The position numbers and the translations under genes are program-made. DNA of 31,759 nt from a virus: the UHGV virus genome UHGV-0134350, one strand, 5' to 3'. This document shows, in pieces, positions 6,553 to 31,759 of the stretch; position 1 is the first letter of the stretch, and each line of letters opens with the position of its first letter. The notes under the pieces were generated by a model. The model worked only from the letters and a program-made list of their open reading frames with translations. It had not been told where the DNA came from and searched no databases.

Positions 6553-6755
6553 ATACCCGAGGCGATCCAGTTTCCAGACCACAAGCGTATCGCCCTCTGA
6601 CAAGGTTCTGAGTAACCTCTTTAGCCCGGCCAGTCTGATGTTTTGCCGCTGATTTTATCTTCGAAAATCAGCTCACATCCTGCGCACTCCAGTTCATTTC
6701 GCTGTAATGCGGTGTTCTGGTCATTTGTTGATACACGTACATAACCGATAAACAT
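6553..6755 (-). pseudogene. serine DNA invertase (Gin/Hin/Cin/Pin family) remnant, frameshifted and 3'-truncated
   Basis: Minus-strand translation gives MFIGYVRVSTNDQNTALQRNELECAGCELIFEDKISGKTSDWPG then a stop; a second frame continues with LKRLLRTLSEGDTLVVWKLDRLG, after which similarity ends. About 67 of roughly 190 aa remain. Confidence 0.75.
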
Positions 6756-6809
6756 GAGAAATAACCCGGTAAAAAGTCGGGAGCATGCCAGCTGAACGGA
6801 ATATCTGCG

Positions 6810-6835
6810 TTTTCTAAAAGGTTGGTTTGGGAGAA
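6810..6835. repeat. left 26-bp hix/gix-like inversion crossover site
   Basis: TTTTCTAAAAGG-TT-GGTTTGGGAGAA; the inner half plus core (6822-6836) is a perfect inverted copy of 8757-8771; the outer half lacks the conserved AAACC. Confidence 0.65.
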
Positions 6836-7360
6836 GGTTCGGCATTACCCGTTGGCGTGCCTGTTCCGTGGCCTTCCGCCACTCCGCCAACAGGCTGGCT
6901 GAAATGCAACGGTGCCGCTTTTTCTGCTGAAGAATACCCGGAACTGGCAAAGGCTTATCCGACAAATAAATTGCCTGATTTACGTGGTGAGTTTATTCGT
7001 GGCTGGGATGACGGGCGTGGTGTGGATGCGGGACGTGCCTTGCTAAGTCTTCAGGATGACTCTTTTGAAGCGCACAGGCATGAGTCCTTTTTTTACGCGG
7101 GTATTTCTCGCAATGAAATACCATTAAAAAATCTTCCAAGTTCAGACGAGATGCTGACTTTAAGTTCTACAACTAATGCCTTGTCCCCGGACGGTATTGA
7201 TGCCACTAATTCGTTAATTGGTAATGATGATTACAACTGTCTGATTGAAGGAAATAAAAATAACAAACGAACAGCGACGGGGTTGAGTACCAGTATTGTC
7301 GGTGCAGCAGAGACACGCCCACGTAATATTTCATTTAATTACATTGTGAGGGCTGCATGA
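6827..7360 (+). CDS. alternative tail-fibre C-terminal segment (Hv'), silent in this orientation
   Basis: Frame opens inside the crossover site (LGEGSALPVGVPVPWPS...), has no ATG of its own, and carries a phage tail-collar-like motif; inversion would fuse it to the constant part of H. Confidence 0.7.
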   Translation: MGEGSALPVGVPVPWPSATPPTGWLKCNGAAFSAEEYPELAKAYPTNKLPDLRGEFIRGWDDGRGVDAGRALLSLQDDSFEAHRHESFFYAGISRNEIPLKNLPSSDEMLTLSSTTNALSPDGIDATNSLIGNDDYNCLIEGNKNNKRTATGLSTSIVGAAETRPRNISFNYIVRAA

Positions 7361-7962
7361 TGTATAACGCCATCTTGAATAGTAAATTTATTGCCACAAA
7401 GGCAGGAGAGATTACCGTTTATAACTATGACAGTGAGACACGGGAGTATATTTCTGCATCAACTGAATATCTTGCTGTGGGTGTCGGTATCCCTGCATAT
7501 TCCTGTTTAGATGCTCCTGGCACACATAAGGCTGGTTATGCAATCTGCCGTTCGGCAGATTTAAACTCATGGGAATATGTGTCAGACCATCGCGGTGAAA
7601 TCATCTATAGCACCGAAACAGGAGAATCGAAAGAAATCACAGCTCCGGGTGATTATCCTGAAAATACAACCACTATCGCCCCGTTAACGCCATACGATGA
7701 ATGGGATGGTGAGAAATGGGTAACAGATACTGTGGCACAGCATAGCGCCGCAGTAGGCGCGGCAGAAGCACAGCGTCAGTCACTGATTGATACTGCAATG
7801 GCTTCCATTAGTCTGATTCAGCTGAAATTGCAGGCCGGACGGAATCTGACGCAGGCAGAAACCGCCCGACTTAACGCTGCGCTGGATTACATTGACGCGG
7901 TGACGGCAACAGATACCAGCACCGCGCCGGATGTCATCTGGCCTGAACTGCCGGAGGCGTAG
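7357..7962 (+). CDS. tail fibre assembly protein (alternative, tfa')
   Basis: 201-aa ORF with typical Tfa C-terminus ...TSTAPDVIWPELPEA; ATG overlaps the Hv' stop. Confidence 0.8.
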   Translation: MMYNAILNSKFIATKAGEITVYNYDSETREYISASTEYLAVGVGIPAYSCLDAPGTHKAGYAICRSADLNSWEYVSDHRGEIIYSTETGESKEITAPGDYPENTTTIAPLTPYDEWDGEKWVTDTVAQHSAAVGAAEAQRQSLIDTAMASISLIQLKLQAGRNLTQAETARLNAALDYIDAVTATDTSTAPDVIWPELPEA

Positions 7963-20720: not shown

Positions 20721-21446
20721 TCAATCGTGAGTGGATATTTGCGAAACAAACTCTTTAACTCCATCTCGTTCAAGTATTTTACTGTCATGGATATACTTTA
20801 CGATATCCCACTCGTAGTATGTACAAGCCATTGCAACTAAAGATATTATTTTTATGTCAGTTAAGTTAACTAATGTTTCATAATAATCTTCCCGTTCAAC
20901 CCCGCAATTATCTATCAACTTCACAATCAAATAAAAGCGACGCACCACTGAAAAAATGCAATCATTAGCATCCACTTCACTTAACCACTTTGTTATTACC
21001 TCTTTTTTTACCTTGGCTTTAACTAAAATTACAATATTATCTTCAAGATAAGTTACGGCTGCACCACTTGTAAATTCTTCGACCACCCCGTCAGTTTGTC
21101 CATCAATATCACCAACTTGAACACAAAACCTTTCAAAGTTAGAATCCTGACATTCAACCAAATGGAAAAATCTCACTTCAAATTTTTTATACTCTTCTAA
21201 AGATTCTTGCCTTTTTACTTCATCGATCAGGCTGGAATTAGCCTCCCTTTGAAGTTTTATTGAATTTATAAGGAGGTAAATTGTAATAAATGAAAGTATA
21301 GGGTTGACGACACCACCCAAATAATCACCAAACTGCGCCCAAACATCAGTCTTGCTGGATAAATGTCCGTTTACTCCGAAGTTGAAGTAATACAAGGCGC
21401 ACACAGCTACAATCACGCCAGCCGAAGACAGCAACACCTTTCTCAT
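20721..21446 (-). CDS. cargo protein with two N-terminal transmembrane helices (candidate membrane effector)
   Basis: 241-aa ORF in markedly AT-rich DNA; hydrophobic helices VLLSSAGVIVAVCALYYF and LGGVVNPILSFITIYLLI; ATG overlaps the stop of the upstream gene (ATGA). Confidence 0.75.
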   Translation of the reverse strand: MRKVLLSSAGVIVAVCALYYFNFGVNGHLSSKTDVWAQFGDYLGGVVNPILSFITIYLLINSIKLQREANSSLIDEVKRQESLEEYKKFEVRFFHLVECQDSNFERFCVQVGDIDGQTDGVVEEFTSGAAVTYLEDNIVILVKAKVKKEVITKWLSEVDANDCIFSVVRRFYLIVKLIDNCGVEREDYYETLVNLTDIKIISLVAMACTYYEWDIVKYIHDSKILERDGVKEFVSQISTHD

Positions 21447-22261
21447 ACAGTTTCAACCATACGGATTAGATATTTCACCACATCACCACTTTTTACTACA
21501 ACTTTGCTAACAGTAAGTTTTAGATATGTGTAGTTATCTTGCCTGCCATTATTATTGTGTAAATTTAATGAGACCAATCTTTTTTGAGCGGCGGGTATAG
21601 CCTTTAAAGGCATGTAAAAACCAAAGGCTACTGTATCATCTTCACCTTCGATAACTAACCTACCATTTCCAGTTCTCGCATTAAATCGAGTAATAACTGC
21701 GTTAATATTAACTTGACCGGGCTTTATTTTTGATTGTGTCAAGTTTGTAGCAGTCATTGTGTCTAACTTTGCTATTCTTTGTTTTCCAGCAGGTTTTTTA
21801 TAGTTAAGTTCAACATCAAAGTTTTTTTGAAGATTTATCCTATGCATCCTTACCAAAGGTTGTCTGATACGATCAATAAGTTCATCTTCAATTTCCTCAA
21901 GCTCCTCAATAATTCCTGCAGCTTTTGGAGATAGCTCCTTAGTTTCCAGATATAGAGATTCAGAAATAAAATACCCCATGACTTCCGAGAACACAGAACG
22001 GGTCATTTTTTTTAATTCGGCAGCTAATTCCGGCTCATTAACAATCAAGTCGAAGTTTTGACCATAAGAACTTTTAAAGCTTTGTTTGAGAACCGCTCGC
22101 GCAGGGTTAACATGAGTGCGGCGCTTAATAATTTTTTTTCTGAGTATTGCCTCTGCTAGTATGCATGTCACCTCAGCCGTTCCAGAGAGGGTATCAAGGC
22201 CATACTCCATATCAACTTCTTGATCACCACTTTTGATGACAACGTCATAGCTAACTTTCAT
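21443..22261 (-). CDS. cargo protein of unknown function (candidate sensor partner)
   Basis: 272 aa from the ATG (MKVSYDVV...) preceded by AAGGA; the track start is a GTG two codons upstream; AT-rich; no motif I recognise. Confidence 0.75.
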   Translation of the reverse strand: MKVSYDVVIKSGDQEVDMEYGLDTLSGTAEVTCILAEAILRKKIIKRRTHVNPARAVLKQSFKSSYGQNFDLIVNEPELAAELKKMTRSVFSEVMGYFISESLYLETKELSPKAAGIIEELEEIEDELIDRIRQPLVRMHRINLQKNFDVELNYKKPAGKQRIAKLDTMTATNLTQSKIKPGQVNINAVITRFNARTGNGRLVIEGEDDTVAFGFYMPLKAIPAAQKRLVSLNLHNNNGRQDNYTYLKLTVSKVVVKSGDVVKYLIRMVETV

Positions 22262-22369
22262 CGGCACATCCTTGATTTAGTAACCTTTGGTTATTATTTT
22301 TCATCTTCTACTCATTGACACCGATTTTTTACACCAAAAATATCAAATTGCAAGTGTGTGCTGCGCGCA

Positions 22370-28219: not shown

Positions 28220-29080
28220 ATGAGTTCTGAGCTTGATGTTCAGTGGCGTGTTAGTGCAACGAACGGCGTATTGGAACGCTTAATGTCAGCCTATGGGGTC
28301 AAGATGCAAAAGGATTTGGCTGACCTGCTAGGTATCGCTAAACACAGCGTTAGCGGCTGGGTTCAGCGTGATGCAATACCTGGCAATGTCATAGTTAGGT
28401 GTTGTCTTGACACGGGAGCTGATATCAATTGGCTTGTAAATGGAGAACTTGCAAATGCAAATCACGAGCGAGCCAGTTGCAAGTTAAAAGGCAAAGAGCT
28501 TTATGACGAGATTATGACGAATGGTGGTAAAACCGTTTTGCGTAGGATTCTTGATGCGTATGGCTTTACCATGCAAAAGGAGCTCGGTGATTTGCTCGGC
28601 ATTTCCTCTGGCACAATTAGCACATGGGTAAGGCGAGATTTTTTCCCTGGTGATGTTGTTGTTACATGCGCTCTTGATACCGATACGTCACTGGAATGGT
28701 TAGCAACAGGCAAGGGGCAAATGCGAGCTAACAGGGAAGATGTCACATCTGGTTTTTCTATTAAAAAATCTCGTCTTGAATCTGGTGAGCTTAAGGATGC
28801 AGGAACGTGGCATCCTGACCCCTCAATGATTCCTTCTAACTCAGGGGAATTGATTTTTGTTGACGGTGTAGCTGCCTCTTGGCTTGTCGACTGTTCTGCT
28901 TCGAATATAAGTAATGGTCGCTGGTTAATTGATATCGACGGCGCTCTTGATGTTTTTGATGTAATTCGCTTGCCCGGTGGAAAAGTCAGGTTGTCAAATA
29001 AGTCTGCTGAGTTTGAATGCAACATTACAGACATTACTCCTGCCGGGGCTGTAGTTTTCACATTGGAAAAACACGTGTAA
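28220..29080 (+). CDS. cI: CI-type immunity repressor (186 CI-like) with tandem duplicated N-terminal DNA-binding domain
   Basis: 286-aa ORF; two internally similar segments (aa about 18-77 and 96-163) of the phage CI repressor HTH type, then a CI C-terminal-like domain. Confidence 0.8.
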   Translation: MSSELDVQWRVSATNGVLERLMSAYGVKMQKDLADLLGIAKHSVSGWVQRDAIPGNVIVRCCLDTGADINWLVNGELANANHERASCKLKGKELYDEIMTNGGKTVLRRILDAYGFTMQKELGDLLGISSGTISTWVRRDFFPGDVVVTCALDTDTSLEWLATGKGQMRANREDVTSGFSIKKSRLESGELKDAGTWHPDPSMIPSNSGELIFVDGVAASWLVDCSASNISNGRWLIDIDGALDVFDVIRLPGGKVRLSNKSAEFECNITDITPAGAVVFTLEKHV

Positions 29081-29088
29081 GGGACATT

Positions 29089-29418
29089 ATGAAATGTAAA
29101 CTCTTTTTAGCTCTGCTTCTTACCCTTTCTTTTGGAGCCTCAGCCGCTGAAAAAACACAGGATTTAGATGGCGCTAAGTTTGGTGAGGATTGGCCGTTAA
29201 CTTTTGAAAAAGCTACGGTGTCTTGTGTCAACGGTAAATATGCCTTTGTGTACGACAAAGCAACAGATGACCAAATGGTTTTGCGATTGATGGAGTAAAG
29301 TCTGGAAAGCTTGAGGGGAGCAATATTGATACTGTTTGGAAAGATAGCCCGGAGTATGCAGGCGTAAAAATTCCTTTGGATCCTGTAATGGATGCTGCAA
29401 CAGCACTTTGGGAATAAT
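29089..29418 (+). pseudogene. small secreted protein gene interrupted by a 1-nt frameshift (moron between cI and int)
   Basis: ATG with GGGA RBS; signal peptide MKCKLFLALLLTLSFGASA; the frame stops at 29298 but another frame continues NGFAIDGVKSGKLEGSNIDTVWKDSPEYAGVKIPLDPVMDAATALWE to 29418. Confidence 0.5.
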
Positions 29419-29439: not shown

Positions 29440-30480
29440 ATGACTGTAAGTAAGCAAAAAAATGGCAAATGGTTATGCGAGCTCTATCCAAATGGTCGAG
29501 AAGGGCGGCGTATACGTCGGCAATTCAATACCAAAGGTGAGGCCGAGGCATTCGAAGCATTTACGAAAAGTGAGAGTGAGGATAAGCCGTGGCTCGGCAA
29601 GAAAGAAGACCGCCGACGCTTAAGTGAGATTATCCAGCTTTGGCATAATTTACACGGACAGGCACTGGTCGCCAGTAAGTCGCGGTTAGCTAAACTTCAA
29701 ATCGTGTGTAATGGACTTGGTGACCCTATTGCATCCCGCCTTACTGCTAAAGATTGGGCTCATTACCGTGACCGCCGACTTCGGGGGGAGATAGATAATG
29801 GCTATCATAAAGACCCGGCAAAATGGATTGCTAAACCGATAACTGTCAATCGTGAGCAACAATATCTTGAGGCTGTATTTAATGAGCTCAAAAGGCTAGG
29901 GGAGTGGAGCTTACCAAATCCACTTGATGGAGTCCGTGTTTTCAAGGAAGCCGAGAAAGAAATGTCTTGGCTCACTTTGTCTCAAATTCCGAAATTGTTT
30001 CAGGCATGCGAGCAATACGGAAAAGAAGACCTCACCATGATTGTTAAGATTTGTCTTGCAACAGGTGCTAGATGGGGTGAGGCTGAGAGGTTGACACGTC
30101 CCCAGCTCTCGCCACATAAACTGACCTTCACCAAAACGAAAGGGAAAAAGAATCGAACCGTTCCGATCCCAAAATGGTTGTATGACGAATTATCTGAAAG
30201 GCAGGGAAAGATGTTTAAGCCTTGCTATCAGGAGTTTAAAAAGATGCTCAAACTAACGGATATCGAACTGACGGAAGGGCAAAAGACACACGTTCTGCGT
30301 CATACCTTCGGCGCTCATTTTATGATGAATGGCGGGAATATTCTTGTGCTGCAACGTATACTCGGTCATGCGAATATTCGTGAAACTATGAAGTATGCAC
30401 ATTTCTCCCCGGATCATCTTGAGGAGGCTGTAACATTTAATCCTTTAACATTATGTAATGGTTTTAAATGGAAAGATTAA
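29440..30480 (+). CDS. int: tyrosine integrase
   Basis: 346-aa ORF with catalytic-domain motifs HVLRHTF, LQRILGH and YAHF; downstream of cI as in P2/186. Confidence 0.9.
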   Translation: MTVSKQKNGKWLCELYPNGREGRRIRRQFNTKGEAEAFEAFTKSESEDKPWLGKKEDRRRLSEIIQLWHNLHGQALVASKSRLAKLQIVCNGLGDPIASRLTAKDWAHYRDRRLRGEIDNGYHKDPAKWIAKPITVNREQQYLEAVFNELKRLGEWSLPNPLDGVRVFKEAEKEMSWLTLSQIPKLFQACEQYGKEDLTMIVKICLATGARWGEAERLTRPQLSPHKLTFTKTKGKKNRTVPIPKWLYDELSERQGKMFKPCYQEFKKMLKLTDIELTEGQKTHVLRHTFGAHFMMNGGNILVLQRILGHANIRETMKYAHFSPDHLEEAVTFNPLTLCNGFKWKD

Positions 30481-30549
30481 TTATGCGTATATTGTTAGTT
30501 TATTTTAACGCTGTTGGATTTAAATTTAATAACGGCTGCGTCTATTGTA

Positions 30550-30596
30550 AACCATAAAGACCACCTATGGCCGTCTTTATGGTTTGTGTTTTTTTG
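30550..30596 (+). terminator. rho-independent terminator after int
   Basis: Stem AACCATAAAGAC / GTCTTTATGGTT, then TGTG and a 7-T run; abuts the stop of the convergent 281-aa gene. Confidence 0.5.
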
Positions 30597-31442
30597 TTAT
30601 GATGGTAATTCTATTTCATCATGATCATCAACTTTTTCAAAGTCACCGGCTTTAATTGGGACAGGTTTAAGTTCAATTTCACCGAAACCCATTGGGAAAA
30701 GACTATGAGTAGTGTCTTGTTTGCAAAAATAAGATACCAAATCAAATCCACAGGAAACTTTTTTTATAAAGTCATCTGATAGTAAAATGCATAAAAAAGA
30801 TGAGTCTTCTTTTGTTTCTGTGTTTTTCTTTGTTGTCTTGGGGTGAATTATGTCATTTCTAAGTGACTCAAGGCTTTTAAAATCTTGCCATAGTTTTGAA
30901 CCTTTAGGTGAATCACAATTTAAAATAGACGGTAGGATTTTATCTATTTTTTCACTTGTTGGTATATATCGCTCAATTAGCTCTTTGCTATAGGATTCTT
31001 TGATTCCCTTGGCATTGTTTTTTTCATAAACATAATCATGTGGTATGCATATATTTGCAAAAGACTCAATTGCAGTATACATAGAAATAATGGCCGTCTG
31101 AATTGATTCAAAGTAATTATAGAGTCTCGGCAGGTCTTTGTCGGAAATTTTAAAGTTTTTATGTTTGGTTTTGTGTATTTTTCCAAAAAGACTTTTATAT
31201 ATAGAATTGGATTTTGAGAGCTCTTTTTTTGCTGAGGATAAGAATATAGAAACGTTATTTGGGGTGAAAAAACTAACTGTCGCACCAGATAATGTGGCTT
31301 TATCTGACATTTGCAATGTCAAATTTAAATTTTCTTCTTCTATTCTTGCTATGATTGGTCTCTGCATCCTGATATCGATAATCTGGATTGTATCCTTTTT
31401 TGACACGTTCTTCTCCGTGGATGTTTTGTGGTTAAAAAACAA
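30597..31442 (-). CDS. hypothetical protein in AT-rich flank, HEPN-like R-x4-H motif
   Basis: 281-codon open frame in very AT-rich DNA, which is unlikely by chance; motif LESLRNDIIHP; the track start is TTG and the true start is uncertain. Confidence 0.55.
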   Translation of the reverse strand: MFFNHKTSTEKNVSKKDTIQIIDIRMQRPIIARIEEENLNLTLQMSDKATLSGATVSFFTPNNVSIFLSSAKKELSKSNSIYKSLFGKIHKTKHKNFKISDKDLPRLYNYFESIQTAIISMYTAIESFANICIPHDYVYEKNNAKGIKESYSKELIERYIPTSEKIDKILPSILNCDSPKGSKLWQDFKSLESLRNDIIHPKTTKKNTETKEDSSFLCILLSDDFIKKVSCGFDLVSYFCKQDTTHSLFPMGFGEIELKPVPIKAGDFEKVDDHDEIELPS

Positions 31443-31556
31443 TGCTAATTTTAGGATGTTGGGTTTTTAAAAACTGACAACTACTTGGTAATACCTGATT
31501 CGTGCAAAAATAATTTTGAAGCTAATAATTACATTATATCAGGTAAAAATCATATA

Positions 31557-31709
31557 ATGCGTATCAATATTACAACATATACGGAAATTTTCCAACTACC
31601 TCATGTGTTAGCGTTTCACTCGGGTATACTAAAGTCTGTGTGGTATAAAGCTTTAAGTGGCGGCAAAGTGGCGGCGGAGGTTGCAGAATATTGCAATTCA
31701 CTGCATTAA
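31557..31709 (+). CDS. small hypothetical protein (uncertain)
   Basis: Open frame from ATG (MRINITTYTEIF...) in AT-rich flank; weak RBS. Confidence 0.2.
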   Translation: MRINITTYTEIFQLPHVLAFHSGILKSVWYKALSGGKVAAEVAEYCNSLH

Positions 31710-31759
31710 AAATTAAATTAACTAATTGTTTTTATTATAATTATATGTTTTTTATGTGG

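Follow-up and report, generated by a model that had tools for sequence, protein, structure and literature searches.

UHGV-0134350, a viral genome analysed here over its full 31,759 nucleotides (nt; hereafter the window), is an Escherichia coli P2/186-like prophage, and the AT-rich segment between its integrase gene (int) and its attachment site carries a gene for a 269-amino-acid (aa) protein of the HEPN kind. We assign a probability of roughly 0.6 to the reading that this protein is a stand-alone, trigger-activated HEPN ribonuclease (RNase) used for abortive infection or superinfection defence. The protein has the conserved active-site signature and the predicted helical bundle of HEPN domains. 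Its gene lies inside the prophage on an insert that sibling prophages lack, and is dispensable cargo. It also travels alone, with no conserved partner, in variable slots of several unrelated mobile elements. The features discussed are collected in Table 1.

The original prediction, made from the DNA letters alone, had pointed to the peptide LESLRNDIIHP, encoded in a minus-strand open reading frame (ORF) at 30597..31442, as an HEPN-like R-x4-H motif. The peptide is indeed encoded there, and the HEPN interpretation gained support from an invariant motif placed at the end of helix 3, a helix-2 glutamate and recurrent weak matches to HEPN profiles. The motif by itself says little, because 13% of shuffled versions of the protein contain an Rx4H and 34% an Rx4-6H; the weight comes from conservation and fold. 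RNDIIH is invariant among the 31 homologues aligned, and the invariant positions of that alignment comprise R183, N184, I186, H188, E114 and N118. Across 79 representatives, reaching down to 25% identity, only R183 and N118 remain invariant, with H188 and E114 conserved in at least 90%, and D11 and R13 are conserved family-wide. An Rx4H match is found somewhere in 168 of 180 family sequences, most commonly beginning RN, RD or RH (R[N/D/H]xxxH), and HEPN domains are defined by just such an Rx4-6H with a polar N, D or H right after the arginine (PMC3710099).

An AlphaFold2 single-chain model (predicted local distance difference test score, pLDDT, 81; predicted template modelling score, pTM, 0.77) places a four-stranded beta-meander at the N-terminus (residues 18-47), followed by helices at 51-74, 89-120, 171-187 and 213-230 that form a four-helix up-down bundle. 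Between the second and third of these core helices is an insertion of about 50 residues, composed of a beta-hairpin and two helices. In the model R183-H188 ends the third helix and E114 lies in the second, which is the arrangement of HEPN domains, where the motif closes helix 3 or opens the helix 3-4 loop and an acidic residue is conserved in helix 2 (PMC3710099). The helix-2 motif here is Ex3N, not the commoner Ex3[KR], and the E114/N118 pair is predicted to augment the active site.

Profile searches gave a more diffuse picture. The 269-aa protein has no match in the local Pfam copy or in NCBIfam, and in PADLOC it returns only a weak RTasHEPN match (E=1.3e-4) and a weak CARF-HEPN model; it does match PHROG 17113 (phrog_17113, E=1e-180), whose function is unassigned. 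The 79 relatives repeatedly fall near HEPN models: their sub-threshold Pfam matches are to HEPN_RiboL-PSP (12), HEPN_Cthe2314 (10), DUF3644 (9), HEPN_Apea (2), HEPN_AbiV (1) and Swt1, six HEPN families in all, and in PADLOC 17/79 match RTasHEPN, with CARF_HEPN, Cas13a and Csx1 also represented. A sequence-profile search of the PDB with the 31-homologue and 79-representative alignments yielded no HEPN match (one spurious hit, E=0.43). The search for the fold with Foldseek, proposed along with the original prediction, likewise gave nothing significant when the model was compared with the PDB and BFVD. Conservation and modelling support a predicted HEPN fold whose active-site signature (R-N-x3-H plus Glu) is both complete and conserved; we regard a catalytically competent HEPN domain as highly probable, and RNase activity of the protein as likely.

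Where the gene stands relative to the prophage ends could be read from complete genomes. Of 5,426 complete E. coli genomes, 19 contain the final 2.4 kb of the window in their chromosome at 100% identity. A repeat marking the attachment site (att) was sought within the window and none was found; because the window starts inside gene D, with no end repeat inside it, both prophage junctions were read from an identical E. coli genome, CH423. The annotated order in CH423 is rplS, an ogr-like regulator, gene D ... terminase, portal, replication gene A ... cII and cI, after which come a frameshifted DUF2511 gene, int, a 269-aa hypothetical protein and yfiB. In K-12, rplS and yfiB are neighbours with 75 bp between them. 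Comparison of the two CH423 junctions gave a common 13-bp direct repeat, GAGCGTCTTAACT, of which one copy forms the 3' end of rplS (L002:5890) and the other lies at L001:14370, corresponding by extrapolation to window positions 31769-31781, 10 nt past the window end. K-12 has a single copy followed by the native rplS terminator, and the same terminator stands 3' of the right-hand copy in the lysogen.

This 13-bp sequence at the end of rplS is the true att core and, since it is single in K-12 and doubled at the lysogen junctions, the phage integrates into the last codons of rplS. Integration exchanges the native TAA stop of rplS for TGA and supplies the gene with a new terminator hairpin (L002 5885-5975), and the native terminator is displaced to the other junction, beside yfiB (L001 14370-14440). 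Looking for the other prophage end and its direct repeat, as had been suggested for this locus, thus fixed att, although not at 30481-30600, where the core had been expected. Just inside the core, both arms carry TGGCGGCA repeats at an 11-nt spacing, the second arm being the one that adjoins rplS (L002); a related Klebsiella phage has three copies of the arm repeat. The AAGTGGCGGCA/TGGCGGCA repeats are most likely arm-type sites for the integrase. Because the core maps beyond it, the 269-aa gene falls within the prophage, with int on one side and the attR core on the other, and is phage cargo, not host DNA; of the two options left open by the original prediction, host-side island or prophage cargo, the second stands and the first falls.

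The cargo could be delimited to the base. In a sibling prophage of E. coli N56, integrated at the same site, the arm repeats, the core and yfiB come straight after int. BLAST against N56 showed homology up to window position 30447 (81%) and again from 31658 (93.5%), with 11 nt between the two in N56, and the cargo is therefore a 1,210-bp insert occupying 30448-31657. At a GC content of 0.31, the insert stands below both int (0.45) and the window as a whole (0.51), which bears out the earlier remark that the DNA past int is strongly AT-rich. Among complete E. coli genomes with the rplS-site prophage lineage, 48 have it empty, with int abutting att, versus 19 with the insert. The insert is thus located between attL and attR, absent from homologous phages and deviant in composition, as prophage cargo genes (morons) are. 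It also encodes the last ~11 codons of int (ending TLCNGFKWKD and stop; window 30448-30480), with the catalytic Tyr upstream of the insert junction. The sibling phage int instead ends in SLYVGDNMAAEVA and stop, a tail that extends over the arm-type repeats; through the insertion, the 3' end of int thus became independent of the arm sites.

The palindrome CCATAAAGAC...GTCTTTATGG, near which the original prediction had looked for the att core, is present within 30548-30586. It forms a hairpin with a 14-bp stem followed by a T-run, folds at -18 kcal/mol on the plus strand (z=-3.7) and -22.4 kcal/mol on the minus strand (z=-6.6), and its inner portion is matched by a terminator scan. Lying between the convergent int (+) and HEPN (-) genes, the hairpin with its T-run is therefore a terminator. 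The homologous Klebsiella spacer between int and the HEPN gene lacks it, and it is therefore dispensable for recombination. As an att site it was rejected on both grounds.

The family turned out to be broad. A word-indexed search yielded only 33 relatives, but 1,111 cluster representatives (50% clustering) scored E<=1e-3 when the profile was searched exhaustively, 144 of them at E<=1e-30. A Klebsiella homologue (88% identity) occupies the same slot between int and att of a 186-like prophage that uses the same rplS core. A Serratia homologue (83%) is carried by a P4-like satellite between delta (Ogr_Delta) and int, that is, in the classical P4 defence hotspot; the slot beside int is described as such in PMC9122126, and PMC13586616 reports that the P2 int-att interval is a minor hotspot for defence, home to 3% of P2 systems. 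Further homologues are found in Morganella (80%; beside a phage tail end and a RelA_SpoT-like gene), in a lambdoid prophage of Providencia (58%; between the Q antiterminator and holin genes), in Pseudomonas tremae (49%; on an island with SIR2_2 and MvaT) and in Acinetobacter (33%; on an 8-kb mobilizable plasmid). Seventeen additional loci come from Beta-, Gamma- and Deltaproteobacteria, Bacteroidota, Ignavibacteria, Paenibacillus and Planctomycetota, and their neighbours within 5 kb include integrases, AbiEii/OLD-type ATPases, PtuA (2e-118), PDC-M01A/B and QatC. The gene thus recurs in mobile slots and islands of several kinds: P2 int-att, P4 delta-int, lambdoid Q-holin, plasmid and chromosomal islands. 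Separately, a 118-aa ORF and a 259-aa RelA_SpoT-like protein (L007 7468-8605) are encoded about 650 nt downstream of the Morganella homologue; they may make up a toxSAS/CapRel-type module and point to a small cluster of defence genes at that phage tail end.

An all-against-all comparison of the ORFs within 3 kb at 24 loci revealed no shared neighbour family except unrelated GGDEF proteins. A conserved partner gene was therefore rejected and the gene taken to be stand-alone. Some relatives are longer (390-490 aa; P0032, P0039, P0043, P0096, P0118 and others) and bear an N-terminal extension of 130-200 aa; a Pfam scan of the extensions of ten such long forms found no domain, and the extension could be an alternative sensor domain.

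From these observations we propose the following scheme. The protein, accessory cargo that a P2/186-like temperate phage holds between int and attP, would be an HEPN endoribonuclease made in the lysogen from its own promoter. It would be kept inactive, probably through the family-specific N-terminal beta-meander (about residues 14-47) and the insertion between helices 2 and 3, until infection by another phage switches it on. Activation would involve a dimer that forms or opens as in other HEPN enzymes, bringing two Rx4H motifs into one composite, metal-independent site. The active enzyme would then cut cellular and/or phage RNA (tRNA, rRNA or mRNA), so that translation stops and the infection aborts, to the protection of the lysogen population and the resident prophage. 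An abortive-infection function is plausible from the genomic context.

Several points weigh against this proposal. RNase activity, dimerisation, trigger and target are all inferred, and a solo, potentially toxic RNase would need to be kept silent. No curated defence model is convincingly matched (best PADLOC 1e-4; nothing in NCBIfam or the local Pfam copy), and megablast and tblastn against 50,697 phage isolates detected no homologue, nor did tblastn with the long forms P0118 and P0032 against phage isolates. A literature search gave no experimental data on any family member; searched by the accession WP_001394629 and by the motif peptide, it returned no paper mentioning the protein, and the DefensePredictor supplements contained no match by accession or peptide. 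The defence genes near the distant relatives appear supportive of a defence role, but they are listed without a background comparison.

Other functions were weighed against the same evidence. The one that fares best, though we think it unlikely, makes the protein a toxin in an addiction or toxin-antitoxin module. The unannotated antitoxin would be a small peptide, or an antisense or 5'-UTR (untranslated region) RNA in the 250-nt upstream region, and the module would mainly stabilise the prophage, satellite or plasmid instead of providing defence. Across the 24 loci, however, the 3 kb around the gene hold no conserved MNT or other partner ORF. In the window, the sole nearby ORF (74 aa) is not conserved in frame, and no ToxI-type tandem-repeat RNA was found, the repeats there being only att arm sites and a weak coding repeat. 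Toxin-antitoxin and abortive-infection roles are in any case compatible and not mutually exclusive.

Slightly less likely still is an RNase that benefits the phage itself, in its own lytic cycle or in lysogen physiology, for example through transcript processing, host shut-off or counter-defence. The gene is phage-borne, the Providencia copy in the late Q-holin region would be transcribed with the late genes, and HEPN RNases are known in RNA processing (PMC3710099). It is nevertheless dispensable, given the 48 sibling prophages that lack it; sequenced phage isolates hold no homologue, plasmids and chromosomal islands devoid of phage genes do, and the gene moves among P2, P4 and lambdoid elements of unrelated life-cycle wiring. 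A catalytically inert HEPN-fold subunit with a binding or regulatory role, such as a nucleotide- or protein-binding adaptor, seems improbable: the arginine, the N/D/H next to it, the histidine and the helix-2 Glu are among the best-conserved positions of the family, non-catalytic HEPN domains typically lose the motif (PMC3710099), and no gene for a partner enzyme is conserved. Host-side island DNA or a recombination accessory (an att element or a directionality factor), which the immediate proximity of the gene to int and the attachment region might suggest, is essentially refuted by a core that lies beyond the gene and leaves it inside the phage, by sibling phages that integrate at the same site without it, by the lack of a DNA-binding domain in Pfam searches and by homologues far from any integrase.

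The defence RNase that we favour resembles several known systems without coinciding with any of them. Like AbiD/AbiF, AbiV, AbiU2, AbiJ and ApeA (PMC3710099), it would be a stand-alone HEPN Rx4-6H protein of mobile elements with no obligatory partner and a predicted role in RNA cleavage on infection; unlike them, it has its own N-terminal beta-meander and helix 2-3 insertion, and it shows no significant sequence match to them. The HEPN-MNT type II/VII toxins (SO_3166, 5yep; Aphanizomenon HEPN, 7ae2) are proteins of about 130-140 aa always paired with an MNT nucleotidyltransferase antitoxin, whereas the protein described here is 269 aa long and has no adjacent MNT or other conserved partner at the 24 loci (its gene has int and att as neighbours in E. 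coli and Klebsiella), and its identity to them is only 7-10%. The Pfam families most often matched by relatives, RiboL-PSP-HEPN, Cthe_2314 and DUF3644 (EC042_2821), are all listed as HEPN families by Anantharaman et al. (PMC3710099); these matches lie below gathering thresholds (best 1e-4 to 7e-4), the 269-aa protein itself matches none of the three, and they indicate kinship at the superfamily level only. Several homologues, including those of Klebsiella and Serratia, carry a precomputed "weak" label for Pfam PF27216 "YopA_C"; a literature search found no paper linking YopA with HEPN or with SPbeta. A close parallel in genomic organisation is the cargo of P2/P4 hotspots, which is likewise variable, low in GC and held in a fixed slot of the element, and the Serratia homologue sits in the classical P4 slot. 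The HEPN gene family is absent from the systems named or validated in the available parts of the two hotspot papers (PMC13586616, PMC9122126). The 269-aa protein is thus an uncharacterised member of a familiar kind, an HEPN effector as prophage cargo in a known minor P2 hotspot.

As to the gene itself, the 281-aa protein of the original prediction corresponds to a real ORF opening with TTG, and the part that did not stand is its length. Translation most likely starts at the GTG at 31406, giving 269 aa, because GGAGAAGAAC lies upstream, PGAP places the start of WP_001394629.1 there and homologues are also 269 aa long. The GGAGAA element is kept at the Klebsiella, Serratia and Morganella loci. 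A 256-aa form beginning at the next ATG was ruled out, as the family-conserved D11 and R13 precede that codon. An AT-rich block of about 200 nt upstream travels with the gene, being conserved between E. coli and Klebsiella and partly in Morganella, although the carrier elements differ, and its segment 31520..31600 is probably the gene's own promoter. The promoter elements are a reading by eye, since a consensus scan for a minus-strand promoter in that segment called none.

The small ORF that had been described as downstream is actually upstream of the HEPN gene and divergent from it. This 74-aa ORF is unannotated by PGAP and has no family match in Pfam, PADLOC, NCBIfam or PHROG; in the homologous Klebsiella DNA its frame is disrupted by indels of lengths not divisible by three and by short ORFs. 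The int of N56 ends in MAAEVA and stop, in the same frame as the VAAEVAEYCNSLH and stop that end the 74-aa ORF. The 3' part of the ORF, to judge from this frame match, is left over from the ancestral int, whose 3' end overlapped the arm sites, and the ORF is probably spurious and not a gene. It was rejected as a partner or antitoxin because its frame is not conserved.

Table 1 Features at the int-att end of the window (coordinates in the window; basis of each assignment in the last column)
Feature	Position	Strand	Basis and remarks
Tyrosine integrase	29440..30480	+	Pfam Int_N and Phage_integrase; alignment with N56 int stops at 30447
AT-rich cargo insert	30448..31657		New int C-terminal tail, terminator, HEPN gene and upstream region; BLAST against N56
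Intrinsic terminator (hairpin 30548-30586 and T-run)	30548..30599		RNA folds, terminator scan
Coding sequence, 269-aa stand-alone HEPN-family protein	30597..31406	-	Stop 30597-30599, GTG 31404-31406; identical to WP_001394629.1
R183-N-D-I-I-H188, predicted catalytic Rx4H	30843..30860	-	Conservation; end of model helix 171-187
E114-S-F-A-N118, conserved acidic/polar pair of core helix 2	31053..31067	-	Conservation; model helix 89-120
Ribosome-binding site GGAGAAGAAC	31407..31420	-	Shine-Dalgarno GGAG 7 nt upstream of GTG
AT-rich upstream block, promoter-like TTGTAATATTGATAC...TATATGAT...TGATATAAT	31520..31600	-	Read by eye
74-aa ORF	31485..31709	+	Straddles right boundary of insert and old int 3' end-attP arm
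attP P-arm	31658..31759		Two 11-nt direct repeats AAGTGGCGGCA at 31655-31675; core GAGCGTCTTAACT beyond window

Other parts of the prophage also attracted our attention. Between cI and int, a DUF2511/YebY-like gene (29090-29418, +) is frameshifted and annotated by PGAP as a pseudogene; it is unbroken in the E. coli N56 sibling prophage and in the Klebsiella phage. The adjacent CI repressor (28220-29080, +) has two tandem Phage_CI_repr helix-turn-helix (HTH) domains and a CI C-terminal domain, a duplication visible in the DNA as a 47-nt internal repeat (28289-28335 versus 28556-28602, 70% identity), and the CI repressor of the Klebsiella phage has the same double-HTH architecture. Two overlapping ORFs of 241 and 274 aa (20721-22267, -; GC 0.35-0.37) lie between portal gene Q and replication gene A, at the site of the classical P2 tin/old defence hotspot; they have no Pfam match and in PADLOC only a ZorB-like match (E=0.002), and they form an uncharacterised candidate two-gene cargo. 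At 6621-7962, an N-terminal resolvase/invertase fragment (6621-6965, -) adjoins a tail-collar/receptor-binding ORF and a Caudo_TAP tail-fibre assembly gene, and the segment looks like an invertible or remnant tail-fibre switch of host range.

In kind, a defence RNase at this position is unsurprising, HEPN RNases being among the commonest prophage-borne defence effectors. A bolder interpretation, which we hold only tentatively, is that the protein founds a so far unrecognised family of single-protein abortive-infection systems, in which a new sensor module gates an HEPN RNase without an antitoxin and the cassette shuttles among P2-like, P4-like and lambdoid elements. Such a family would span the roughly 1,100 representatives at 50% clustering, from Proteobacteria, Bacteroidota, Firmicutes and Planctomycetota, and its sensor would be the N-terminal beta-meander together with the helix 2-3 insertion or, in the long forms, the N-terminal extension. 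If validated, the protein would represent a compact (0.8-kb) single-gene defence family that escapes PADLOC 2.0, NCBIfam and the local Pfam copy. A further gain would be a clean example of the little-studied int-att slot of P2-like phages, in which the insert ends can be placed with single-base precision and the insert has rewritten the last codons of int. That a P2-like phage and a P4-like satellite share this gene at 83-88% identity bears on the exchange of defence cargo between helpers and satellites.

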